Shown piece after piece: positions 4,711 through 27,629 of a stretch of DNA of 27,629 nt. Location of the stretch: NCBI GenBank assembly GCA_017447745.1, contig JAFSMW010000106.1:1-27629 (forward strand), in the 5' to 3' direction. The notes under the pieces were generated by a model, which worked only from the letters and a program-made list of their open reading frames with translations, did not search any database and had not been told where the DNA came from. The stretch is from Thermoguttaceae bacterium. GTDB taxonomy: Bacteria; Planctomycetota; Planctomycetia; Pirellulales; Thermoguttaceae. Each line of letters starts with the position of its first letter. The first letter of the stretch is position 1. The translations under genes were made by a program, and so were the position numbers.

Positions 4711-6684
4711 TCAGAAATCAACGTCGTCATCCTGAATATCGACGTTGTCTCCAATTTCAAAGTTATCATCGTCATTATTGCCTACGTTGTCTTTATTGTC
4801 AGCGGCGTCTTCTTCAACGTCAGCATCGTCTTCAACGTCAGCATCGTCTTCAACGTCAGCGTCGTCTTCAACGTCAGCATCGTCTTCAACGTCAGCGTCG
4901 TCTTCAACGTCAGCATCGTCTTCAACGTCAGCATCGTCTTCAACGTCAGCGTCGTCTTCAACGTCAGCGTCGTCTTCAACGTCAGCGTCGTCTTCAACGT
5001 CTGCGTCGTCTTCAACGTCTGCGTCGTCTTCAGCGTCTGCGTCGTCTTCAGCGTCAGCATCGTCTTCAACGTCAGCATCGTCTTCAACGTCAGCGTCGTC
5101 AATGTCAACGTCCTCGTCAAAATCGTCGTCGAGATCTTCTTCGTTAACAATCAGTTCACCAAATTTCTCTGTAAGCGTTTCAACGAGGTAATCGTTTCGG
5201 AATTCAGTGGAGAACACTTTTCCGTCATTACCGACCAAGACCATACACGGCAGAGCAATAATTCCGTAGTATTCGCTGATGCTAACGCTGTCAACACGAG
5301 CATCCTTTTCCCACATATTAATCCAGGGGAATTTGTGTCTCTTAACGAACTTTGCAACCTGTTTTTTGTTTTGGTCCAAAGCAATGCAAACGATCTCAAA
5401 CCCTTTGGCTTTGTAGGCTGGATAGGCGCGTCTTAAGTATTTGAATTCTTCCATACTGGGCGGAATGGACGGCGACCAGAAGTAGACCAAAACGGTCTTG
5501 TCTTTCAGGTCAGCCATGTTGAACTCTTTGCCGTCAATTGTCTTTCCAGTTAGCGGAAGTTCTTTTCCTTTGAGAGTAAGGCGTTTGGCAGAACCGCGCA
5601 TTGTTTTAACAATTTCCTGAACCTTGGCGTCCTGAATGTTTTCAAAGGCGACAGCGTATTTTTCATAACGTGCGGCAGCGGCGGCGGTATCAAAAACTTC
5701 TTCGGTAAAAGCGGTCTGGAAAGCGATTGCAACCACCTTCAGATTGGCTTTCTCGCCGTAATCGGCAATCATGTCGTCAACAGCTTTAGCGGTTTTATCA
5801 AACTTGGCTTTGTCATTTTGAGCAACCGATTCTGACAGCGCGCTGGCAAGCTTGCCCATGAAGATGTCTTCAACCATATCAGACAAACCGGCTTCTTTGA
5901 TTTCTGCAATAACCGCTTCAAAATCTGCAGAATTGTCAACGCCTTTGAGCTGTCCGAGTCCTTTGATGCAAATCAGCTTAATCAGGTACAGACGCTGAAG
6001 CTTTTCTTTGTTTTCCGCAGGCGTCTTTTGGATGGTTTGACCTGTCTGCTCGATGATTTTTTCAACATCAGAATAATCGTTCGTCTTTTTGGCGTCCTGG
6101 AACGTCAAAGTAATCAATCCCATGACAATATCGTCTGCGAGTTGGGACTGTCCGATTTTTTCGAGCTGACCCGGCATGGAGTACAGTTGAACTTTCGCGT
6201 CTTTATCACCCGCCTTAATAAGAATTTGCAAACTCTTAATTTTTACGGCAACCGCACGCTGAATCTGTTCGACAGTTGCGTCTTTATGTTCAATGACCTT
6301 ATCAGCCGCCGCAACTTGAGCTTTACACAGCTTGGTGTAATGAGCAATCATTTCTTCCCGCGACTGGTCTGCAGGACGTTTGATGAGCATGAGTTTTTCG
6401 ATAAAAGCCAGATATTCTGCCGGCGTTCCGTTTTTTGGGACGGGGTATGCCTCGGAATCAACGCTCTCCTCTTCAAGAGCCTCTTCGACGTTCGCTTCCG
6501 CTTCTGTTTCTTCAGCGGGTGTTGTATCTTCAGCGGGAATCTGAGATTCGGCATCCTCAGTCTGTTCTGCGTTTTCAACAGCAGGCGCAGCGTCGGTCGG
6601 AACGGGAGCGTCGTCTGCAAAGCAGGACGCCATAAACAGGGTCATAGCCAAAAAGGCGGCTATATTCATCAATGTACAACGCAT
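4711..6684 (-). CDS. Secreted/lipoprotein-like protein with a CXXC-less thioredoxin-fold (TlpA/redoxin-like) domain and a poly-acidic (DDADVE)n tail
   Basis: Signal peptide with a lipobox-like MASC. An acidic N-terminal linker is followed by a ~320-aa helical region. The redoxin-like segment reads KTVLVYFWSPSIPPSMEEF...ALPCMVLVGNDGKVF; the WCxxC position is replaced by WSPSIPPS. About 16 DDADVE repeats lead to a terminal DDDVDF. SD AAGGAG lies 8 nt upstream of the ATG. Confidence 0.7.
   Translation of the reverse strand: MRCTLMNIAAFLAMTLFMASCFADDAPVPTDAAPAVENAEQTEDAESQIPAEDTTPAEETEAEANVEEALEEESVDSEAYPVPKNGTPAEYLAFIEKLMLIKRPADQSREEMIAHYTKLCKAQVAAADKVIEHKDATVEQIQRAVAVKIKSLQILIKAGDKDAKVQLYSMPGQLEKIGQSQLADDIVMGLITLTFQDAKKTNDYSDVEKIIEQTGQTIQKTPAENKEKLQRLYLIKLICIKGLGQLKGVDNSADFEAVIAEIKEAGLSDMVEDIFMGKLASALSESVAQNDKAKFDKTAKAVDDMIADYGEKANLKVVAIAFQTAFTEEVFDTAAAAARYEKYAVAFENIQDAKVQEIVKTMRGSAKRLTLKGKELPLTGKTIDGKEFNMADLKDKTVLVYFWSPSIPPSMEEFKYLRRAYPAYKAKGFEIVCIALDQNKKQVAKFVKRHKFPWINMWEKDARVDSVSISEYYGIIALPCMVLVGNDGKVFSTEFRNDYLVETLTEKFGELIVNEEDLDDDFDEDVDIDDADVEDDADVEDDADAEDDADAEDDADVEDDADVEDDADVEDDADVEDDADVEDDADVEDDADVEDDADVEDDADVEDDADVEDDADVEDDADVEEDAADNKDNVGNNDDDNFEIGDNVDIQDDDVDF
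4810..5105 (-). repeat. 18-bp coding minisatellite (gtcagcatcgtcttcaac and variants, ~16 copies) encoding DDADVE repeats
   Basis: Direct reading. Units differ mostly at synonymous positions (gca/gcg, gat/gac), with occasional V->A changes. It also generates the spurious repeat ORFs 4666..5436, 4674..5147, 4745..5191 and 4782..5150. Confidence 0.9.
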
Positions 6685-6797
6685 GGTTCTCTCCTTGTGG
6701 CGATGTGGTGAATAGTTGCGAGTAGCGAGTTGCGAGAGAAATTGTGTAAGGCGTATGCTTTCTCTTGTTTCGTGCTGCTCAATAGCTTCTTTATTAT

Positions 6798-6826
6798 ATA
6801 TTACCAGAAAACACCTAATTTGACAA
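6798..6826 (-). promoter_or_regulatory. Sigma70-like promoter candidate for the 4711..6684 gene (minus-strand -35 TTGTCA, 17-nt spacer, -10 TAATAT)
   Basis: Plus-strand sequence reads atatta(6798-6803)-17 nt-tgacaa(6821-6826). It lies ~115 nt upstream of the ATG at 6684, in an AT-rich patch. Confidence 0.35.
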
Positions 6827-6890
6827 GAGGAATTTTGGCTATTGTCCAGTTTGGGCGTTGCGAAAGATTAGATTTTTTGAGGCGCTTTGA

Positions 6891-6948
6891 CTCATCACTC
6901 CTCACTCCTAATTCCTAACTCAAACCACTCCCTATACTCTATTCCCCT
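6891..6948 (-). repeat. Heptamer array (CCTCACT/CCTAATT/CCTAACT ... TATTCCC on plus strand) overlapping the umuC-like stop codon
   Basis: The minus-sense strand reads TAGGGGAATAGAGTATAGGGAGTGG...GAGTTAGGAATTAGGAGTGAGG. The umuC-like TAG stop is the first TAG of the array. Confidence 0.7.
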
Positions 6949-8235: not shown

Positions 8236-8404
8236 GAGTTAGGAATGAGGAGGGAGGAGTGAGGAGTTGGTATAGCGCTTTGCGCCGACAGGGTCGGTTC
8301 CCGAATGGACGTGGGATGCGCCGAAATAGGCTTTTTCGGAGGCATAACCTTGTCCTCTTGCCCGCGCGGCTTCGCGCCCTCACTCCTAATTCCTAACTCC
8401 TAAC
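8236..8404. repeat. MITE-like unit: inverted heptamer arrays (gagttaggaatgaggagggaggagtgaggag ... cctcactcctaattcctaactcctaact) flanking a ~95-bp core with a gcgcg-gctt-cgcgc hairpin
   Basis: The arms at 8236-8269 and 8377-8404 are reverse complements of the same heptamer family. It sits between the metzincin stop (8423) and the umuC-like start (8206). Confidence 0.5.
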
Positions 8405-8422
8405 TGTTTAAACTACAGTCTA

Positions 8423-9864: not shown

Positions 9865-9944
9865 GAGTTAGGAATTAGGAGTGAGGAGCGATATTCGCCG
9901 AAGGCGAACCACTACTGCCTACTGCCTCTTGCCTATTGCCTAAC
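9865..9944. repeat. Heptamer-array + hairpin element between the two metzincin paralogs (gagttaggaattaggagtgaggag / ttcgccgaaggcgaa / ctactgcctactgcctcttgcctattgcctaac)
   Basis: The central hairpin is a perfect palindrome. The right arm supplies the last three codons and the TAG of paralog B (..VRQ*). Confidence 0.7.
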
Positions 9945-12929: not shown

Positions 12930-13119
12930 GGAATAGGGGGGAGGAGATATAAGCTATTAGCTAATAGCTAGAAGCTAGCAACTCAAAAAATACTCCCTCC
13001 GTGGGTTAAAACCCACGGCTACAAATATTGAACTGCTACGCAGTTCTTGAGGAACGCTATCGCGTCTGTTTAAATAACTACGCCCTCTTCCCTACTGCCT
13101 ACAGCCTCTTTTTCCCTCA
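12930..13119. repeat. Divergent-promoter region packed with element parts: ggaataggggggaggag, an AGCTATT/AGCTAAT/AGCTAGA/AGCTAGC heptamer array, hairpin ccgtgggtt-aa-aacccacgg, hairpin gaactgc-tac-gcagttc, and ccctactgcctacagcc
   Basis: Direct reading between the oxidoreductase start (12829) and the M16 peptidase start (13247). Confidence 0.5.
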
Positions 13120-15970: not shown

Positions 15971-16150
15971 GGGTTTAGGCAGTAGGCAAGAGGCAGTAGG
16001 CAGTAGTAGTTCGCCTTCGGCGAATTTTAAACTACGCCATATTACCTATTGTCTAAACTAATGTTTTCCGTTGGTTTGATGAATAAATAAGGCAGTATGC
16101 AGTAGAAAAGATTTCCCTATTGCCTACTGCCTACTGCCTAATGCCTCAAA
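15971..16150. terminator. Bidirectional element between convergent M16 peptidase and GH5 genes: TAGGCAG-type array (15976-16006), hairpin ttcgccttcggcgaa (16010-16024), second hairpin ggcagtatgcagtag...cctattgcctactgcctactgcc (16091-16140)
   Basis: Plus-sense array directly follows the M16 TAA; the minus-sense array follows the GH5 TGA. Perfect GC hairpin in the centre. Confidence 0.6.
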
Positions 16151-17765: not shown

Positions 17766-17796
17766 CTACTGCCTATTGCCTACTGCCTATTGTCTA
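17766..17796 (-). repeat. Heptamer array (ctactgcctattgcctactgcctattgtcta) filling the GH5/beta-helix intergenic gap and supplying the ...NRQ-TAG end of the beta-helix gene
   Basis: Direct reading. The stop codon at 17780-17782 lies inside the array. Confidence 0.7.
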
Positions 17797-20257: not shown

Positions 20258-20544
20258 GGCAGGGAAGGGAAGCTGTTGAGATTTGCAAGAGGATGAAAGG
20301 CGGTAATGACGGTTGGTCATTCCAGAGTTTTGGTTTGCCTTCGGCAAACTGCGTAATTCCGCTCCCGTTGGTCGCTCCATTACCGCCTTCCATTCTCATT
20401 ATAAACCAACCCAAAACAAAAATCAAGAATTTTCCTGTATTTTTCTCTTATCCCGCTTTCTTTTTTCTGAATTAATCGTATAAATATAAATAGAGTAATT
20501 GGTTTCTTTGCAAACGTTTGACAATATCACCCAATTTAAGAGTC

Positions 20545-21619: not shown

Positions 21620-23260
21620 ATGACGCATTTAGCAACATTATCGCAGATAACAGAATCTTCGATGATCTATCCGGCAATTTTTATCGGATTGATTATTCTG
21701 CTTCTTGCCGGGCTGTTTGTTCTTTTTCTGAAATGTTATAAACGCTGCCCCAGTAACCGGATTCTTGTCATTTTCGGTATGACGGAAAAAGGCAAATCGG
21801 CAGTCTGCATTGCCGGCGGCGCGAGATTCGTCAAGCCGTTTATTCAGGATTACGCTTGGCTGTCTCTCGAACCGATGCAGATTGAAGTTCCTCTGCGCGG
21901 CGCGCTGTCTTTGGAAAACATCCGCGTCAACGTCCCCAGCGTGTTTACGGTTGCTATCGGAACGTCAGACGACCTGATGCAAAATGCAGCAGTTCGACTT
22001 CTCGGCTTGTCTTTCGGGGAAATCAAAAAGCAGGCAGAGGACATCATTTTCGGTCAGATGCGTCAGGTAATCGCGTCCATGCCGATTGTTGACATCAACC
22101 GCGACCGTGACAAGTTTCTGGAAAACATTCAACATTCTCTGGAACCGGAATTGCGAAAAATCGGTTTGATTCTCATCAACGTCAACATTACAGATATTAC
22201 TGACGAATCTGGCTACATCGAAGCAATGGGGCAGAAAGCGGCGTCTGAAGCGATTCAGAAGGCGCGCGGCGACGTTGCGGAAAACGAAAAGATGGGCGCT
22301 GTCGCCGTTGCCAACGCAGAACGGGAAAAGGCGGTTCGCGTTTCGGAAGCCAACCGCGACATGAACATCGGAACCCGTGAAGCTGAACGAGATCAGCAGA
22401 TTCGTTTGGCAGATCTGGCAAAAGAGCAGTCCATTGGAGAACAACAGGCGGAATTCCAGAAAGAAGCCGAAATCAAAGAAGCAGAACGGGAAATGCGAAT
22501 TCGTCTGGCAGACGCCAACGCGAAGGCGATTGAGGGCGAAAACATCTCTCAAGCCGTCATTGCAGCGTCTAAAGCCGAGTTGATGATCAAACAGGCGGAA
22601 GCGTTTCAGGCAGGCGGTACGAAAAAGGCCGTTGCGGAAGCCGCTGTTAAAGAAGCGGAAAACTTGGCTTTGGCAAAGGCGGCGGAAGCGGAAGCGGTTC
22701 GCATTGAAGCAGAGCGTCGCGCCGAACTGGAAGCCCCGGCAAAAGCCGAAAAGGCGAAAATCATCGTCGAGGCGGAAGCCGAAGCCGAGAAACGACGCGT
22801 CGAGGCGACTGGTCGAGCGGCAGAAATCTATGCGGAACTGGAAGCACGAGCCCGCGGCGAATACGAAATCCTCGCTCGGAAAGGCGAAGGTCTTCAGAAG
22901 ATTATCGAGGCGTGCGGCGGCGCGGAAGCTGCGTTCCGACTCCTGCTTCTGGAACATTTCGACACACTGATCGAATCCTCCGCAAAAGCCATTTCCAACA
23001 TCAAGTTCGACAAAGTCGTCGTTTGGGATGGAACTGGACAAGGCGGTCAAACGGCAACGTCCAACTGGCTTACCGGCATGGCGAAAACGCTCCCGCCGAT
23101 GCTCGAAGTCATGAAAGAAGTCGCCGGCGTCGACATCCTGCCGTCTATCACCGGAGCCGAAAGCAAAGAACCCGCTCCGGCGGCAGAAGCCCCTGTCCCA
23201 ACGGAACCCCCTGCCCCGGCGGCAGAAAAACCTGTAACAAAAACCGCTGCGAAGAAATAG
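21620..23260 (+). CDS. floT: Flotillin-like SPFH/band-7 protein (FloT-like)
   Basis: N-terminal membrane hairpin followed by an SPFH domain and a long Ala/Glu-rich coiled-coil (EA repeats); 546 aa. The TAG stop is part of the downstream GGGAATA array. Confidence 0.8.
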   Translation: MTHLATLSQITESSMIYPAIFIGLIILLLAGLFVLFLKCYKRCPSNRILVIFGMTEKGKSAVCIAGGARFVKPFIQDYAWLSLEPMQIEVPLRGALSLENIRVNVPSVFTVAIGTSDDLMQNAAVRLLGLSFGEIKKQAEDIIFGQMRQVIASMPIVDINRDRDKFLENIQHSLEPELRKIGLILINVNITDITDESGYIEAMGQKAASEAIQKARGDVAENEKMGAVAVANAEREKAVRVSEANRDMNIGTREAERDQQIRLADLAKEQSIGEQQAEFQKEAEIKEAEREMRIRLADANAKAIEGENISQAVIAASKAELMIKQAEAFQAGGTKKAVAEAAVKEAENLALAKAAEAEAVRIEAERRAELEAPAKAEKAKIIVEAEAEAEKRRVEATGRAAEIYAELEARARGEYEILARKGEGLQKIIEACGGAEAAFRLLLLEHFDTLIESSAKAISNIKFDKVVVWDGTGQGGQTATSNWLTGMAKTLPPMLEVMKEVAGVDILPSITGAESKEPAPAAEAPVPTEPPAPAAEKPVTKTAAKK

Positions 23261-23316
23261 GGAATAGGAATGGGGAATAGGGAGTAGACGCTTGCGTCAA
23301 CTCCTCACTCCTAACT
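23257..23316. terminator. Bidirectional element between convergent flotillin and minimal-metallopeptidase genes (tagggaataggaatggggaatagggagtag / acgcttgcgt / ctcctcactcctaact)
   Basis: The plus-sense array contains the flotillin TAG. The minus-sense array begins 2 nt after the metallopeptidase TGA. Confidence 0.6.
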
Positions 23317-23774: not shown

Positions 23775-23781
23775 AGATGCA

Positions 23782-23980
23782 GGGAATAGGGAGTAGGGAA
23801 TGGGGAGTAGGGAATAGGGAATAGGGAATAGGGAGTGGCAAGTGGATTGGAAGGCGGTAATGGAGCGACCAACGGGAGCGGAATTACGCATTCGCCGTCA
23901 GGCGAACGGAGGCATTAGGCGATAGGCAATAGGAAAGAGTGTAAAATTTCTACTGCCTACTGCCTCTTGCCTACTGCCTC
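23782..23980. repeat. Large composite element between the radical-SAM gene and the metallopeptidase gene: (GGGAATA/GGGAGTA)x8, hairpin ttcgccgtcaggcgaa (23891-23906), TAGGCGA/TAGGCAA/TAGGAAA array, then ctactgcctactgcctcttgcctactgcc
   Basis: Direct reading. The last arm encodes the final EAVGKRQ and the TAG of the radical-SAM protein on the minus strand. Confidence 0.8.
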
Positions 23981-25036
23981 CCTATAGTCCTCATAGCACA
24001 ACAGCGGCTCATTGCGGTCAAAGTCCCAGGTATGGGTTGAATCGCCGCCGCAAAGAAACCGCTCTGAACAGTTGACGCATTTGGAGCAGTCGGCAGTGCG
24101 GTCTTTTCTGAAAACCTGAAAACGATTCAGCCAGACGTCCATAAAGTTGTCCGTCTTGATATTCCCCTGAACCAGCTCCGGTCTGTTTTCGATATCCAGA
24201 CACGCACAGATGTCGCCGTTGCTTCTCACGCTGGCAACTAAGATTCCCGCTCCGCAGAGGAAATAATGATCGCGAACCATGCGCTCGTTCTCTGCTCCAA
24301 GGTAATGCGAGCACCCGAACGTTACTTCCATCTTGTTGGCGCTGTCAAATCGCTTGTTTCGTATATAGGAAATCAACTGAGCAAACTGTTCCGGCGACAA
24401 CAACATGTCGCTTGACTCACAAGCTCGTCCAATCGGCTCTACGTTGATCGGCCGCCAGTTGGTTATGCCCATCTGAGTGAGCATATCGTACAGCTCGTCC
24501 AGTTCGTTGAAGTTGTCTCGATGTAACACGGTCGTTACCTGCGGCTCGAACCCCGCCTTCTGCAGAGCTTTCAGCCCGCGCAGAGCAAGACGCCAGCTGC
24601 CCTTCCGCTGTCGGAGAGAGTCGTGCGAGCGCTCCAGCCCGTCCAGGCTGACGGACACCGTAGACATTCCAACCTGTTTAAGATTCTCTGCAATCACGTC
24701 GTCGATCAACGTCGCGTTTGTCGTCATGCCCCAATAGAACCCCATCGACCGAACGCATTGAGCTATCTCGAAAAAAGCAGGATGCATCATCGGCTCGCCG
24801 CCGGTTAAGCAGATTGAGGGTTTGTCGCCCTGAATGGTTTTCAGGACGCCTTTAATATCCTCGACGGTCAACGTCTGCCCATGAGCGGTGCAGTTACTCC
24901 CGCAATGCCGACACCGAAGATTGCATCGATTGGTAATTTCAAAGAAAAGCCACCGGAGATGCGGAGATTTTCGGAGGGATTCCCTGTGCTGCGCGACAAC
25001 TTCAAGCTGTGAACGTTTTAGCTCTGTTACATCCAT
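23957..25036 (-). CDS. Radical SAM enzyme with C-terminal SPASM domain (peptide/protein-modifying maturase-like)
   Basis: CxxxCxxC cluster ITNRCNLRCRHC and a GGEP motif (LTGGEPMMHP). C-terminal Cys-rich SPASM-type segment (CGAGILVASVRSNGDICAC ... CSKCVNCSERFLCGG). 359 aa. Confidence 0.85.
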   Translation of the reverse strand: MDVTELKRSQLEVVAQHRESLRKSPHLRWLFFEITNRCNLRCRHCGSNCTAHGQTLTVEDIKGVLKTIQGDKPSICLTGGEPMMHPAFFEIAQCVRSMGFYWGMTTNATLIDDVIAENLKQVGMSTVSVSLDGLERSHDSLRQRKGSWRLALRGLKALQKAGFEPQVTTVLHRDNFNELDELYDMLTQMGITNWRPINVEPIGRACESSDMLLSPEQFAQLISYIRNKRFDSANKMEVTFGCSHYLGAENERMVRDHYFLCGAGILVASVRSNGDICACLDIENRPELVQGNIKTDNFMDVWLNRFQVFRKDRTADCSKCVNCSERFLCGGDSTHTWDFDRNEPLLCYEDYREAVGKRQ

Positions 25037-25068
25037 TCGATAATCCCCCGCTTGTTGCGGCTCTCTCG

Positions 25069-25494
25069 CTACGACTCTTTATTTTCCTCGTTTTCCATTC
25101 TCGCGAAGGCGTTGTCGACGTACTCTCGAACGTTATCCAAGTACCCCTGGACGTTATCCAGTTGCTTTTCCAAGACAGGCGCAGGAGATTCAGGAACAAA
25201 TGCGCCCGCCTCGTCTCCATCCTTTGCTTTACCCGGGGCAGAACCGCCGCACTTCGGGCAATAGCGTTCGCGGTCAATCATCTGATTGGTTGTCCAAGTG
25301 TACCCACATTTTACGCATTTATGAACTCTCGTGATGGGCGGCGGTCCATAGATGCAGGCGAAGTTTTCTGGTATATAGGCGGGCTTCCCCATCTTCGCTC
25401 CGCAATACCGACAGTATTTATCCCCTTCAATATAAGTGTTTTTGCAATTAGCGCAAACCTTTCTCATCGGTCGTTTTCCAGGCATTCCAGGCAT
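25069..25494 (-). CDS. Cys-rich double zinc-ribbon protein with an acidic helical tail (candidate substrate or partner of the radical SAM enzyme)
   Basis: Two CxxC-x10-14-CxxC units (CANC..CRYC and CVKC..CPKC), followed by LDNVQGYLDNVREYVDNAF and an acidic end. Strong SD AGGAGG 5 nt upstream of the ATG at 25492-25494; the track start at 25518 overlaps that SD. 32-nt gap to the radical-SAM start. Confidence 0.6.
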   Translation of the reverse strand: MPGMPGKRPMRKVCANCKNTYIEGDKYCRYCGAKMGKPAYIPENFACIYGPPPITRVHKCVKCGYTWTTNQMIDRERYCPKCGGSAPGKAKDGDEAGAFVPESPAPVLEKQLDNVQGYLDNVREYVDNAFARMENEENKES

Positions 25495-25706
25495 AATATC
25501 CTCCTGTTTATAATACAATTTCTCTGCTAAATACGATTAATAGCGTATTTTTAATATAATCTATTCTCACTTTGTTTTCAAGTAGATTTTTAGAAATTGG
25601 GTAAAAAATTTGAAAAATAGATTATCTCGAGAGTTGCAACTGAGGGCGATAAATTTGGGGTTACGAAAGTAGGTGAGATTAACAATCGCATTCAATTTGA
25701 ACGTAG

Positions 25707-25933
25707 CCCACGCCTTTAGGCGTGGGTTCCAAAACGACATAAATAGTAATATAACGCACAAATTCCCTGTCCCTTCCCCGCTCCGAATGGAGCGGGGAAG
25801 GGACAGGGAGGGAAGCGTTTTGGGGAGGAGCATTTATTTAGTCCCCCAGATAAATCTGGGGGCTACGTTTTTTGAATTGTTTTTATTACCCACGTCTAAA
25901 GACGTGGGGATAAGAACAGATAAATCTGGAGAC
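25707..25933 (+). ncRNA. Cluster of GC hairpins in a 600-bp non-coding region. Hairpin cccacgcc-ttta-ggcgtggg (25707-25726). Perfect 20-bp stem ccctgtcccttccccgctcc-gaat-ggagcggggaagggacaggg (25765-25808). Hairpin cccccaga-taaa-tctggggg followed by cTACGttttttg (25843-25873). Hairpin cccacgtc-taaa-gacgtggg (25889-25908). Degenerate repeat cagataaatctggagactacg.
   Basis: Direct reading. The third hairpin plus T-run looks like a plus-strand intrinsic terminator, but there is no plus-strand CDS for 2.5 kb upstream. Hairpins 1/4 and 3/5 are duplicated units. Confidence 0.35.
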
Positions 25934-26057
25934 TACGACAAGGTTTCAAGGCTATTTCCTTTTTTCATGCCCCCAATTTTGAACACACTCTTCCGAATTC
26001 TGAATTAAAAATAGGTCTGGATAAAAATGGGGAAATATATTATAATAAGAGGTGTAT

Positions 26058-26118
26058 AGGGAATAGAGCTTCGCATTCGGCGAATTTAAATACTATTCCC
26101 TACTCCCTATTCCCTACT
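26058..26118. repeat. Heptamer-array + hairpin element immediately upstream of the 26122 start codon (tatagggaatagag / cttcgcattcggcgaa / tattccctactccctattccctacta)
   Basis: Direct reading. Same family as the elements at gene 3' ends. Confidence 0.7.
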
Positions 26119-26121
26119 ATC

Positions 26122-27629
26122 ATGAAAAACCACCTTAACTTTATCCTGCTCCTGACGTTATTCGCCTTTACAGGCGCAATCGCGACGGCGGACGCACCGG
26201 CGGGCGGCGCTCAAAGCGACGGCGTTCAAAATGAAGCCAACGAGGACGACATTTTCGACATGGAAGAAGACGCCGACAAGGAATACGACGATCTGTCCAT
26301 ACAAGCTATGGACGGTTCTCCCAGATATTTCTTTAATCGAGCGTCAGAGGAAGTCGTTCAACAAGCCAACCAGATTTTTGAGAACCCGGACTATCAGCAA
26401 GCCCTTCTCGACGCCCAGCGTCTGATTGAAGAAAACCCCGGAACGTTCTTTCCCGCCAAAACGGAATCGGTCAACTTCAGCCACAATATAACAAGAACTC
26501 AATGGTATCCAATTGAATGGGCGCTCAGTACTGGACGCAATCGGCGCTTGACTGACGACGAAGTCAAAATTTACCGTCAGATTCAGGACGAGGCGGCAAA
26601 CGCGGCTTACGACGAGGCAAACAAGACGTCTGACCCGCAGCTGCGTCTGGCGAAACTGGACGACGTCCGCCGGCAGTATCCGGGATCAAGCATCGCCCCG
26701 GCTATCGCTTTGGAATTGGGCGATGCGTTGGCGGCGCAAAGCGCTGCGCTTATCGCTTTTGATTATTGGACAAGCTCAATTCGTCCGGAAATTGGCAGAG
26801 CGTTTTTACAAGATAACCATTGGGATAATACGTATCCTTCTGAAAAATGCCGCGTTTCGGAAGCGGAACTGGTCTTTAGGGTTTATATTATTGGTTTACG
26901 AACAGGAATTTTCTTGCCTGTTTTGAAAAAAATTTCTGATAAAGAAACCGACCTTGAAGCGTTCAGACGTCTTTTCCCTACAGCCAAAGCCGTAGTCAAT
27001 TCTAAAAATATTGTTATTGCCTCTCCGAGTTATCCTTTTCCAGAATCCATGACGCGTTACGACGGAAAAGAAGTCGTTCTGGCGGATTATCTGACGGAAC
27101 TGAAAACGGAAATTGACGAGGCGCGAGAATCGTTCAAACATTCATTTATTGAGGACGATCCAGAAAATGAGCCCTCTGTAGAAGAGAATCCAGAGGATTA
27201 TTTATTATGTAATCAGTATGGTCTTTACGACGCTCGACCGGTAGAAATAAACGGCGCCATGTACGCTGGGAAATATTTATACTATCATAAATATAATGCT
27301 GAAAAACAATATAGTATAAAACAATTTCCATTTACCGTTCACCCGTCAAACGGGTTGACAGCGTTTCTACAAGGAGTTCGTTTTCAAGAGTCTTATGAAT
27401 TAGAAACTTCCGAAGACGATAACGCTCCTTATACCAGCGCGGAATCTGTTCTTTATCCAGGTCGCGTTCCCCAAGACTTTGAACCTGCAAGCAACTGGCT
27501 TATTTGCATAGATCGCGACAATGGAAACAAAGTCCTCTGGACGCGATCATGGAACAACAACCATTCTATGTGGAAAAATTCAGGATATTTTTTTCACGAT
27601 AAATTTTTCGCGCTTGAAGTTTCCTTAAA
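26122..27629 (+). CDS. Hypothetical secreted protein, 3'-partial (runs off window; absent from the ORF track because no stop is reached)
   Basis: Hand translation from the ATG at ~26122 gives MKNHLNFILLLTLFAFTGAIATADAPAGGAQSDG... with no stop through 27629 (502+ codons). Only short ORFs exist in the other frames. Confidence 0.6.
   Translation, partial: MKNHLNFILLLTLFAFTGAIATADAPAGGAQSDGVQNEANEDDIFDMEEDADKEYDDLSIQAMDGSPRYFFNRASEEVVQQANQIFENPDYQQALLDAQRLIEENPGTFFPAKTESVNFSHNITRTQWYPIEWALSTGRNRRLTDDEVKIYRQIQDEAANAAYDEANKTSDPQLRLAKLDDVRRQYPGSSIAPAIALELGDALAAQSAALIAFDYWTSSIRPEIGRAFLQDNHWDNTYPSEKCRVSEAELVFRVYIIGLRTGIFLPVLKKISDKETDLEAFRRLFPTAKAVVNSKNIVIASPSYPFPESMTRYDGKEVVLADYLTELKTEIDEARESFKHSFIEDDPENEPSVEENPEDYLLCNQYGLYDARPVEINGAMYAGKYLYYHKYNAEKQYSIKQFPFTVHPSNGLTAFLQGVRFQESYELETSEDDNAPYTSAESVLYPGRVPQDFEPASNWLICIDRDNGNKVLWTRSWNNNHSMWKNSGYFFHDKFFALEVSL

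Follow-up and report, generated by a model that had tools for sequence, protein, structure and literature searches.

The cluster of hairpins in front of a 623-aa gene in a rumen Thermoguttaceae bacterium (Planctomycetota) is probably an insertion of REP/REPIN-type repeats, that is, a non-autonomous palindromic mobile element; we put the probability of this reading at roughly 0.8. The cluster lies towards the end of the window, by which we mean the whole stretch of DNA analysed (27,629 nucleotides), and a related module stands alone at 12999-13046.

Architecture of the hairpin cluster

The cluster lies between a zinc-ribbon gene (25069-25494, minus strand) and the downstream 623-aa gene, which starts at ATG 26122. 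Metagenome gene callers placed no gene between 25494 and 26122, in agreement with the earlier note, which had described a gap free of plausible coding sequence. The hairpins that it reported at 25707-25726, 25764-25809, 25843-25862, 25889-25908, 25917-25937 and 12999-13018 are all present. For 25690-25945 the predicted fold is far more stable than that of shuffled sequence (z = -10.9 for the plus strand, -11.9 for the minus strand), none of 200 shuffles reaching the native stability. The features discussed below are the following.

12999-13046, minus strand: solo REP module in another divergent intergenic region, made of accessory hairpin, linker, CTAC and main hairpin
25553-25581, minus strand: promoter-like site of the zinc-ribbon/radical-SAM operon, outside the insertion and conserved in relatives (alignment)
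~25625-25990, boundaries approximate, unstranded: lineage-specific inserted segment carrying all hairpins of the cluster (blastn and alignment)
25648-25665, minus strand: probable third, half-length remnant of unit B, GATAAATTTGGGGTTACG (direct and inverted repeats)
25690-25878, unstranded: REPIN-like, symmetric unit of 190 nt, closed by an inverted repeat and composed of two inverted, GTAG-headed hairpins whose heads point outward, a mid stem and, at the centre, a 21-bp hairpin
25702-25726, plus strand: REP unit A, head CGTAG (GTAG at 25703-25706) and hairpin CCCACGCC-TTTA-GGCGTGGG at 25707-25726
25727-25736, unstranded: left half of the mid stem, TTCCAAAACG, pairing with 25816-25827 as helix 3 of the consensus structure
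25764-25809, unstranded: central perfect palindrome of 46 nt, 21-bp arms TCCCTGTCCCTTCCCCGCTCC, loop GAAT (inverted-repeat search)
25816-25827, unstranded: right half of the mid stem, GCGTTTTGGGGA (fold, consensus structure)
25843-25867, minus strand: REP unit B, hairpin CCCCCAGA-TAAA-TCTGGGGG (25843-25862), then CTACG, the GTAG head of the minus strand
25868-25873, plus strand: T-run (TTTTTT) that gives unit B the look of a plus-strand intrinsic terminator (terminator scan)
25889-25908, minus strand: hairpin A', CCCACGTC-TAAA-GACGTGGG, which repeats unit A in inverted orientation but has no GTAG head (inverted and direct repeats)
25917-25937, minus strand: B', a decayed copy of unit B, CAGATAAATCTGGAGACTACG, with 90% identity to 25847-25867 (direct repeat)
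26018-26046, plus strand: promoter-like site of the downstream 623-aa gene, outside the insertion and conserved in L004, L005, L006, L007 and L010

The main hairpins (25707, 25843, 25889 and 12999) are each 20 nt long, with an 8-bp stem and a 4-nt loop. GTAG, overlooked in the earlier note, lies directly beside four hairpins: that at 25707 on the plus strand, and those at 25843, 25917 and 12999 on the minus strand, where the plus strand reads CTAC. The hairpin at 25889 has none. Units A and B stand with their heads outward, 136 nt from start to start. The perfect palindrome between them is real and has the GAAT loop described before, but its arms measure 21 bp rather than 20 and its length is 46 nt rather than 44. 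The two cccacg hairpins, A and A', are indeed related, but as inverted copies with loops TTTA and TAAA and not in tandem; in place of the tandemly duplicated unit suggested previously, the cluster forms a nested inverted-repeat structure. B', which had been correctly recognised as a degenerate second copy of the terminator hairpin, retains its head and has a stem reduced to 4 bp. The remnant at 25648-25665 also pairs with 25958-25980 as an outer inverted repeat, and motifs like it adjoin repeats at L009 6640-6670 and L004 5271-5306. The hairpin at 25843-25862 with its T-run, described in the earlier note as a textbook plus-strand terminator, was flagged on that strand by our terminator scan. 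The T-run belongs to the element itself, as a variant form of its inverted flank: it lies in the flank CTACGTTTTTTGAATT of the right arm, which in inverted orientation corresponds to AATTTGAACGTAG of the left arm (25694-25706).

The layout of the 25690-25878 unit recurs, with different sequence, at two loci in related contigs (L007 8808-8974 and L035 451-630), and the three composite units share five helices in which 94.5% of the aligned cells pair. Of 52 pairs, 31 differ among the units in both partners, always with Watson-Crick compensation, and no pair differs in one partner alone. Covariation of this extent was unmatched in 500 shuffles, and structures slid along the alignment pair at only ~45%. 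The mid stem (helix 3) is conserved as A.CG / CG.T in all three units. The counterparts of the central palindrome are likewise perfect while differing in sequence (21 bp in L007, 23 bp in L035), and 11 of the 22 central-stem pairs differ on both sides across the three units, with none differing on one side.

Presence and absence in relatives

Five relatives (L004, L005, L006, L008 and L010) lack the segment ~25625-25990 in their orthologous intergenic region; their radical-SAM neighbour protein is 94-97% identical to that of the window. Both flanking genes are retained in all five and both promoters in four, L008 being without the plus-strand promoter region as well as the cluster. In the other four, the flanks 25520-25620 and 25991-26120 are conserved and 16-72 nt of heptamer repeats replace the segment, so that promoter spacing is ~100 bp in relatives and ~440 bp with the cluster. 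Since the cluster is missing from relatives that keep the flanking genes, it is to be regarded as an insertion and not as a conserved RNA gene. The same absence, together with the position of the cluster between divergent promoters, speaks against the earlier idea of a leader for the flanking operons. The two promoter-like sites point away from each other, and a promoter scan found no such site inside the cluster. No target-site duplication or clean empty site was seen at the cluster boundaries; the heptamer tract is replaced rather than simply interrupted. Heptamer arrays are abundant in the region and already form inverted repeats themselves.

Other relatives carry units in different arrangements. 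In L007 an analogous unit lies elsewhere in the same intergenic region, and in L035 a further unit adjoins the cluster; a homologue search with the 52-aa ORF fragment beside this second unit gave no match. In L010 a solo module stands between the zinc-ribbon gene and the radical-SAM gene, which are 32 nt apart in the window. Exact-protein matches returned identical or near-identical copies of the locus only. Several metagenome contigs end inside the hairpin cluster, an effect of the repeats themselves.

The wider hairpin family and associated Y1 transposases

The solo module consists of a main hairpin CCGTGGGT-TAAA-ACCCACGG (12999-13018), CTAC at 13019-13022 and an accessory hairpin GAACTGC-tac-GCAGTTC at 13030-13046. 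An identical main hairpin, with a co-varying accessory hairpin, occurs at another locus in L010, and hairpins of the 12999 type were found in at least 120 metagenome contigs. Of the 134 copies among the matches listed, 111 are NTAG-headed and 117 are preceded by an accessory hairpin; 15 heads-outward pairs are spaced 102-146 nt apart. These figures carry an ascertainment bias because the loci were selected by the 12999-type hairpin itself. The same bias applies to the motif CC-N6-TTYA-N6'-GG in the hairpin-selected metagenome loci (226 matches, 184 of them NTAG-headed). The motif has 10 matches in 127 kb of Thermoguttaceae loci, nine of them with a TAG or TAA head, and none in 296 kb of Firmicutes and Bradyrhizobium control loci.

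A covariance model, R1, was built from the three rumen units only. It spans the whole 25690-25878 unit in a full-length match, and it also matches dozens of 12999-type inverted pairs over their full length (E ~1e-17 to 1e-9), with up to six matches within 15 kb of metagenome sequence; in the control loci it has no match. Hairpins of this kind occupy two intergenic regions within the ~35 kb seen of the window's genome and three further loci in ~100 kb of its relatives. The exact stems of A and B and the 46-nt palindrome occur nowhere else in 1.2 Mb of fetched loci (~160 kb of this lineage) or in the viral collection; viral contigs had no match to the 12999 hairpin, to unit A or B, or to the central arm, and a literature search with the hairpin sequence retrieved unrelated primers only. 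Only the three rumen copies have the CT-rich, perfectly paired central arm. In the wider family, two accessory hairpins make up the central stem, which has mismatches, and each module runs from outer hairpin through linker and head to main hairpin; hairpin A' of the window occupies the position of that outer accessory hairpin. Copies of the wider family lie in many unrelated contexts and have no tie to particular genes.

A Y1_Tnp protein (PF01797) is encoded in nine of the at least 120 hairpin-selected loci, scoring 82-105 bits in the six that were scanned, and in eight of the nine its gene is <700 nt from a matched hairpin. At the four loci read in detail (L105, L112, L114 and L144), the Y1 gene stands between inverted hairpin modules in a REPtron-like arrangement. 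The REPINs flanking the gene in L144 are heterodimers of ATAG-CCCACCGA-TTCA-TCGGTGGG and CCCACACA-TTTA-TGTGTGGG, and they resemble the window's unit in stem type and in their heterodimer habit; the stem type of unit A (CCCAC...GTGGG with NTAG head and TTYA loop) is among those beside this gene. All six scanned proteins pass the IS200/IS605 model NF033573. With the REP-associated model NF047646, one of the six reached 23.7 bits against a cut-off of 80 and five had no match. In the alignment, all nine Y1 proteins near family hairpins show the signature Y---Q--HH, which places them in TnpA-Y1 subclass 1.2. No Y1 transposase gene was present in the Thermoguttaceae sequence examined. The contigs that bear the family range from 34 to 65% G+C and some are Bacteroidota-like. 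One such metagenome contig has a Bacteroidota-type sorting domain, and the Pfam assignments of other neighbours are not diagnostic.

Known systems, rival readings and a proposed origin

The same behaviour has been described for REPIN spacers, whose length and hairpin persist and in which compensatory changes are frequent (Bertels and Rainey 2011, PMC3116915). Like the REPINs of Pseudomonas fluorescens SBW25 and other bacteria, the window's unit has two inverted REPs, conserved ends and a drifting spacer in which the hairpin is kept; it is likewise intergenic and variably present among relatives, and in the wider family there is the same link to a Y1 gene flanked by the same repeats (PMC3116915). 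It differs from the SBW25 elements in being longer (136 nt between hairpin starts as against 71 bp between the conserved 16-mers), in having two REPs with different stems that fold separately as a clover instead of as one long hairpin, and in the perfect 21-bp hairpin of its spacer. The enzymes of the wider family also differ from those of REPIN systems, being IS200-like (Y---Q--HH) and not classical RAYTs.

The window's hairpins share the unpaired GTAG foot of the GTAG superfamily, and their 8-bp stem and 4-nt loop fall within its ranges of 5-13 bp and 2-20 nt (Di Nocera 2013, PMC3733652). GTAG-tagged REPs form head-to-head and tail-to-tail dimers, heterodimers and clusters, have structured spacers and insert into palindromic targets, and they have already been reported in the planctomycete Rhodopirellula baltica as GTAG-20/21 (PMC3733652); the peptides listed for intragenic copies of the latter, however, do not correspond to the window's hairpins. 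Unlike the superfamily, the wider family has heads in which G, T or A can precede TAG, and most of its copies have an accessory hairpin ~10 nt outside the head. The REP/BIME elements of E. coli and their TnpA-REP enzyme (REPtron) are comparable in the GTAG-plus-hairpin substrate, the mosaic clusters of alternating units and the transposase gene bracketed by inverted REPs, but their sequence is unrelated, and the class recognised by NF047646 includes the E. coli enzyme, whereas the family's Y1 proteins fall short of that model. TnpA-Y1 subclass 1.2 has been described as mostly cyanobacterial and from Bacteroidetes, and as generally without terminal secondary structures (Quentin et al. 2018, PMC6006769); the present proteins agree with it in Y---Q--HH, whereas inverted GTAG-type hairpin modules frame the genes read in detail here. 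Integron attC sites are likewise variable-sequence imperfect palindromes recognised as folded single-stranded DNA. We rejected this assignment, there being no R''/R' core sites (RYYYAAC / GTTRRRY), no cassette ORFs and no integrase nearby; the ends of the units (ACGTAG / CTACGT in the window, TTGTAAC / GTTACAA in L007) do not fit the consensus either.

The earlier note had favoured a discrete plus-strand sRNA of ~170 nt ending at 25873. Such an RNA would form three stem-loops, the last being the hairpin 25843-25862 with its U-run. The very stable predicted fold, the terminator-like consensus site and the compensatory changes that maintain structure in three related units would all suit such a gene, yet the minus strand folds equally well, and the complete lack of one-sided (G-U-type) stem changes fits a DNA palindrome better than an RNA read from one strand. 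An sRNA gene also sits badly with the five relatives whose orthologous region has no cluster, the lack of an internal promoter-like site, the units of L007 and L035 that have no T-run, and the association of the family with transposase genes. At gathering thresholds, Rfam covariance models matched neither the window nor ten metagenome loci; a permissive search of 25500-26150 yielded only generic, sub-threshold hairpins of microRNA-precursor type, on both strands. We therefore regard an sRNA gene as highly unlikely. That the same hairpin is a working intrinsic terminator, stopping stray plus-strand transcription ahead of the downstream gene, seems extremely improbable: an 8-bp stem with six G-C pairs, a 4-nt loop and a T-run would serve, but the nearest upstream plus-strand ORF, whose distance had been remarked upon before, ends at 23260, 2.6 kb away, with three minus-strand genes in between, and the site is upstream of the downstream gene's own promoter and absent from relatives.

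A lineage-specific regulatory DNA element, possibly an exapted repeat, whose palindromes bind protein or extrude a cruciform and so insulate or co-regulate the divergent operons, is a very improbable alternative. The cluster does sit exactly between the two divergent promoter-like sites, with the spacing widened from ~100 to ~440 bp, and REP/BIME elements of E. coli bind gyrase and IHF. Relatives without the cluster nevertheless retain the genes and mostly the promoters, the L007 unit is at a different place in the region, and family copies in many unrelated contexts argue against a role tied to these operons. It is very improbable that the palindromes have another origin and merely resemble REPs, be it as a DDE-derived MITE or through local template switching in the heptamer tracts. 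Template-switch correction of quasi-palindromes would yield perfect arms, the region is rich in heptamer arrays forming inverted repeats, and the central arms are pyrimidine-rich as these arrays are; against this, the hairpins agree in their GTAG heads, TTYA loops and CC...GG closure with the family that flanks Y1 transposase genes, the full five-helix layout is common to three independent units, and R1 ties these units to REPINs near transposase genes. A DDE-type MITE was rejected: the whole unit has terminal inverted repeats, but no target-site duplication marks the boundaries and host sequence was replaced.

Under the REP/REPIN reading, the core at 25690-25878 would be a tail-to-tail doublet of GTAG-headed 8-bp/4-nt hairpins A and B, with a structured spacer predicted to fold as a perfect 21-bp hairpin, and the headless inverted copy of A (25889-25908) and the decayed copies of B (25917-25937 and 25648-25665) around it would make up a BIME-like array. 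A Y1 (HUH) tyrosine transposase with its gene elsewhere in the genome would recognise the units as folded single-stranded DNA, reading the hairpin with its unpaired GTAG foot and cutting and rejoining beside it, and would thereby copy or move the unit into intergenic DNA. The recombination site proposed in the earlier note was thus close, GTAG-tagged hairpins being the kind of single-stranded substrate that Y1/HUH transposases cut and rejoin. Because transposition would need the fold, the sequence would drift while compensatory changes preserve the pairing. The present copy would have inserted into the presumably untranscribed stretch that separates the divergent promoters, at the expense of part of a heptamer-repeat tract. 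Observation covers the structures, their lack in relatives, the family with its architecture and covariation, and the link of the wider family to transposase genes; we infer that a Y1 enzyme mobilised this copy and that the genome encodes one. The cluster is probably neutral at its present site, where it would act as terminator, insulator or cruciform only incidentally, if at all.

For the window, reading the cluster as a REP/REPIN insertion mainly prevents mis-annotation, since the orphan terminator and the structured sRNA become by-products of a selfish palindromic repeat. REP/REPIN-type elements are hereby documented in uncultured rumen Thermoguttaceae, with a covariance model and a simple motif for finding them, and such repeats are useful in the analysis of MAGs as strain markers and recombination hot spots. 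A more tentative proposition, which we hold to be possible but doubtful, is that KTAG-headed CC-N6-TTYA-N6-GG hairpins and their accessory hairpins are unrecognised REP/REPIN partners of TnpA-Y1 subclass 1.2 in a REPtron system, from which a clover-shaped REPIN evolved in rumen Thermoguttaceae. Such hairpins would then be candidate substrates of a subclass of IS200-like transposases that had no known DNA partner. If this were true, the REPtron system would span contigs of very different composition (34-65% G+C), and the 21-23 bp central stem of the rumen clover REPIN would stay perfectly Watson-Crick paired during sequence turnover.

Architecture of the hairpin cluster

The interval from the zinc-ribbon gene (25069-25494, minus strand) to the downstream 623-aa gene (ATG at 26122) contains no called gene, and all the structures listed in the earlier note were found in the sequence. 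Each arm of the perfect palindrome is one pair longer than had been described, giving 46 nt rather than 44. In addition, GTAG (CTAC on the opposite strand), which had been overlooked, directly adjoins the hairpins at 25707, 25843, 25917 and 12999.

Hairpins and promoter-like sites of the window
25707-25726, unit A hairpin, CCCACGCC-TTTA-GGCGTGGG
25764-25809, perfect 46-nt palindrome, 21-bp arms, loop GAAT
25843-25862, unit B hairpin, CCCCCAGA-TAAA-TCTGGGGG, then CTACG, then TTTTTT
25889-25908, hairpin, CCCACGTC-TAAA-GACGTGGG
25917-25937, decayed copy, 90% identical to 25847-25867
12999-13018, hairpin, CCGTGGGT-TAAA-ACCCACGG
25581-25553, minus strand, promoter-like site TTGAAA-17-TATATT
26018-26046, plus strand, promoter-like site TGGATA-17-TATAAT

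Positions 25690-25878 form a single large imperfect palindrome (AATTTGAACGTAG-hairpin ... hairpin-CTACGTTTTTTGAATT), and none of 200 dinucleotide shuffles folded as well as the cluster region (z = -10.9 and -11.9 on the two strands). The two divergent promoter-like sites enclose the cluster, and the site scan detected none within it.

We read the cluster as a repeat of the REP/REPIN type, with a probability of roughly 0.8. One REPIN-like doublet, comprising units A and B and the central spacer hairpin, plus remnants, would explain all the hairpins noted: 25889-25908 is an inverted, headless copy of unit A, sited where the outer accessory hairpin would lie, 25917-25937 is a clear decayed copy of unit B, and 25648-25665 is probably a half-length remnant of unit B. 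Di Nocera 2013 (PMC3733652) describes GTAG REPs, including families of the planctomycete R. baltica, as having a GTAG foot and 5-13 bp stems; they form heterodimers, tail-to-tail or head-to-head dimers and clusters, possess structured spacers and insert into palindromic targets. The window cluster agrees with these features. It also agrees in spacer behaviour and clover fold with REPINs, whose spacers keep their length and hairpin through compensatory change and whose clover fold was suggested to be the form on which the transposase can act (Bertels and Rainey 2011, PMC3116915).

Genomic setting and presence in relatives

The radical-SAM/SPASM neighbour matches Thermoguttaceae (Planctomycetota) MAGs from ruminant guts at 82-97% identity, and the window DNA is ordinary chromosome; its genes include ArgRS, LigA, DinB, peptidases and glycoside hydrolases. 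The radical-SAM/SPASM protein (23957-25494 region) also has homologues, at 59-76% identity, in Firmicutes MAGs of the rumen (L012-L031; Succiniclasticum, Lachnospiraceae, Mogibacterium, Oscillospiraceae), and the adjoining zinc-ribbon gene matches at the DNA level over its beginning, which together suggest horizontal transfer of the gene pair within the rumen. Elsewhere, a tandem repeat of GCGTCGTCTTCAACGTCA (4805-5100, period 18 nt, 16.4 copies, 95% match) lies inside a 657-aa thioredoxin-like ORF (4711-6684, minus strand) and would encode a hexapeptide repeat tract.

The intergenic region was compared with those of relatives by blastn and alignment A1. The flanks at 25520-25620 and 25991-26120, both promoters included, are kept in four related contigs (L004, L005, L006 and L010), where 16-72 nt of heptamer repeats (CTCGCAA and TTCCGAA arrays) stand in place of ~360 nt; L008 is also without the inserted segment. 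In L007, an analogous cluster occupies another part of this intergenic region, 3' of the plus-strand promoter and 5' of the ATG. In L010, the zinc-ribbon and radical-SAM genes are separated by a solo hairpin module, at a spacer that measures 32 nt in the window. As judged from sequence comparison, this patchy distribution, with units present or missing at several sites in close relatives, argues that the cluster is mobile or unstable repeat DNA and not a conserved RNA gene or leader, the segment being missing from L004, L005, L006, L008 and L010.

Contig L035 is 99.5% identical to window 25000-25920, diverges directly after the 25889 hairpin and enters another unit, and contigs L037 and L038 stop inside the cluster, at 25799 and 25829. 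These patterns reflect either true rearrangement at the cluster or assembly chimerism or breakage due to repeats. Beyond the 25889 hairpin, in L035 1-720 (against window 25905-25940), a REPIN other than the window's and a GYF-like ORF take the place of the window sequence.

Two further kinds of small repeat were observed. Nearly every intergenic region of the window contains short arrays in which a 7-nt unit is repeated in 3-8 copies, usually purine-rich (TAGGCAG, TAGGGAA, GAGTTAG) and then complementary (CTACTGC, CTACTCC), and therefore heptamer-built hairpins bracket gene boundaries. REP tails adjoin heptamer arrays in the rumen-type contigs. The arrays recall the STRR heptamers of cyanobacteria, and we know of no description of them for Planctomycetes. 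The second kind is a hairpin, GGAATTACGCA-(G)TTCGCC-loop-GGCGAA(C), that recurs just 5' of start codons or in the gaps between genes of an operon and could serve as a 5'-UTR or processing motif.

Heptamer arrays and small hairpins
Heptamer arrays, window: 1624-1681, 6714-6921, 8378-8405, 9865-9942, 15976-16146
Heptamer arrays, window: 17766-17796, 23256-23287, 23781-23836, 23910-23980, 26057-26118
Small hairpin, window: 20333-20349, 23885-23908
Small hairpin, relatives: L004 9825-9910, 16833; L007 9877, 9919; L008 5526, 5567; L010 4646, 10990

Covariation and a dispersed family

Three units share the same order of parts (window 25700-25869, L007 8808-8974 and L035 451-630): a head (GTAG, GTAA or ATAA), an 8-bp/4-nt hairpin with CC...GG closure and TTYA loop, ~35 nt with A.CG, a perfect 21-23 bp hairpin, CG.T, ~33 nt, the inverted hairpin and the inverted head. 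Their central arms differ, yet pairing is perfect in each.

Central arms of the three units
Window: TCCCTGTCCCTTCCCCGCTCC
L007: CGCTTTCCCTCCCGCGCCTCC
L035: CCCTCTTTTCTCCCCCCAGCGCC

In alignment A3 (the units were also analysed with RNAalifold), 94.5% of cells are paired, with both-sided change in 31 of 52 pairs and one-sided change in none; these counts are modest, since the independent units number only three and each was included on both strands. The observed pairing was reached by 0 of 500 shuffles, and slid structures pair at only 42-49%.

Beyond the REP/REPIN reading, the rest of the probability is shared by an sRNA, a true terminator, an exapted regulatory element and a palindromic repeat of another origin. 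Since one-sided (G-U-type) change is absent and the two strands are symmetric, the units suit a palindrome at the DNA level better than an RNA made from one strand, which speaks against an sRNA. The hairpin and T-run that the earlier note took for a textbook terminator are present, but the T-run is the unit's own flank in variant form and is missing from the sister units. We do not place the REP/REPIN reading higher because neither the A and B stems nor the palindrome, further copies of which the earlier note had proposed to seek as a 44-mer, recur in 1.2 Mb of loci (~160 kb from this lineage) and the viral collection; no Y1 transposase gene lies in the ~160 kb of the window's lineage; the insertion boundaries are replacements of sequence, not clean empty sites; and the perfect CT-rich central arm is restricted to rumen copies.

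The 12999-type hairpin was selected as query for a metagenome scan because the identical 20-mer occupies a different locus in L010, where the accessory hairpin beside it shows compensatory change (GAACTGC/GCAGTTC in the window, GAACCGC/GCGGTTC in L010). It occurs in at least 120 metagenome contigs from very varied samples. Among the matches listed, 134 copies have full flanks; an NTAG head is present in 111 (GTAG 48, TTAG 51, ATAG 10, CTAG 2), a small accessory hairpin ~10 nt outside the head in 117 (often CGTCGC-gta-GCGACG) and a further hairpin ~25 nt inside in 102. At least 15 heads-outward pairs (spacing 102-146 nt) and at least four heads-inward pairs (80-96 nt) were found, and paired copies form long hairpins whose ~22-bp central stem consists of two inverted accessory hairpins. 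Host contigs of the exact 20-mer CCGTGGGTTTTAACCCACGG span 34% to 65% G+C, and one encodes a Bacteroidota-type secretion sorting domain. An extreme dimer form was seen in L125 (117-192), a perfect hairpin with 36-bp arms in which two complete REP modules (each an accessory hairpin, linker, head and half of the main hairpin) are fused without a spacer around one common loop.

Covariance model R1, trained on the three rumen units only, matches dozens of metagenome pairs at full length (about 45-75 bits, E from about 1e-17 to 1e-9) and gave no match at E <= 0.01 in 296 kb of Firmicutes and Bradyrhizobium control loci. The sequence-free motif CC-N6-TTYA-N6'-GG (<=1 mismatch) has 10 matches in 127 kb of Thermoguttaceae loci, nine with a TAG or TAA head, 226 in the hairpin-selected metagenome loci (NTAG head in 184; non-query stems in 82) and none in the same 296 kb of controls.

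Association with Y1 transposase genes

Clustering of hairpin-adjacent ORFs, followed by tblastn, identified a ~150-aa protein in nine loci with KTAG-headed hairpin modules nearby (L105, L112, L114, L144, L150, L053, L051, L058 and L102). The six proteins scanned are all Y1_Tnp (PF01797, 82-105 bits) and pass the NCBI IS200/IS605 model; they do not pass the NCBI REP-associated model. DHVH, WQxGY and YIxNQxxHH are present in all nine (alignment A4), the last being the Y---Q--HH signature of TnpA-Y1 subclass 1.2, for which no terminal structures were found (Quentin et al. 2018, PMC6006769) and a low copy number has been reported. Nine genes in 0.73 Mb of hairpin-selected loci is far above that copy number, and none was found in the other 0.4 Mb examined; because the loci were selected by hairpin, the relation is an association and not a calibrated enrichment.

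In L105, L112 and L114, inverted modules lie on both sides of the Y1 gene, in the order accessory hairpin, GGTAG, main hairpin, ~22 nt, accessory hairpin, TTGAA, gene, and then the mirror image. This arrangement is similar to that of a REPtron (a transposase gene flanked by REPs), whereas the ends of IS200 are asymmetric. The gene-less hairpin pairs look like the same element minus its gene. In these three contigs (L105 391-2502, and the regions 5' of the Y1 genes in L112 and L114), the Y1 gene and REP modules lie directly 3' of a conserved gene whose product ends in ...IQENFEELGV; the L105 ORF, of 704 aa, may be a type I restriction-modification methylase (HsdM).

In L144, heterodimer REPINs (ATAG-CCCACCGA-TTCA-TCGGTGGG with CCCACACA-TTTA-TGTGTGGG) lie on each side of the Y1 gene and adjoin a canonical CCGTGGG-type REPIN. 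Their stem type is that of unit A of the window (GTAG-CCCACGCC-TTTA-GGCGTGGG), and in L144 and the window alike the stems differ within each hairpin pair. In L144, the Y1 gene, with REPINs before it and a REPIN after it, lies between two copies of a ~80-nt direct repeat (45-135 and 1245-1325), which would be unusual for a Y1 element; the repeat resembles the 5' end of a host gene that has been duplicated (...TTAATGCAACAAAGC.TGATCACAATCGCATACATCGCCGCGAG...).

REPs, REPINs and GTAG REPs in Planctomycetes are already known. As a tentative and rather doubtful extension, TnpA-Y1 subclass 1.2 may have its missing DNA partners in these hairpins, over contigs of very different composition.
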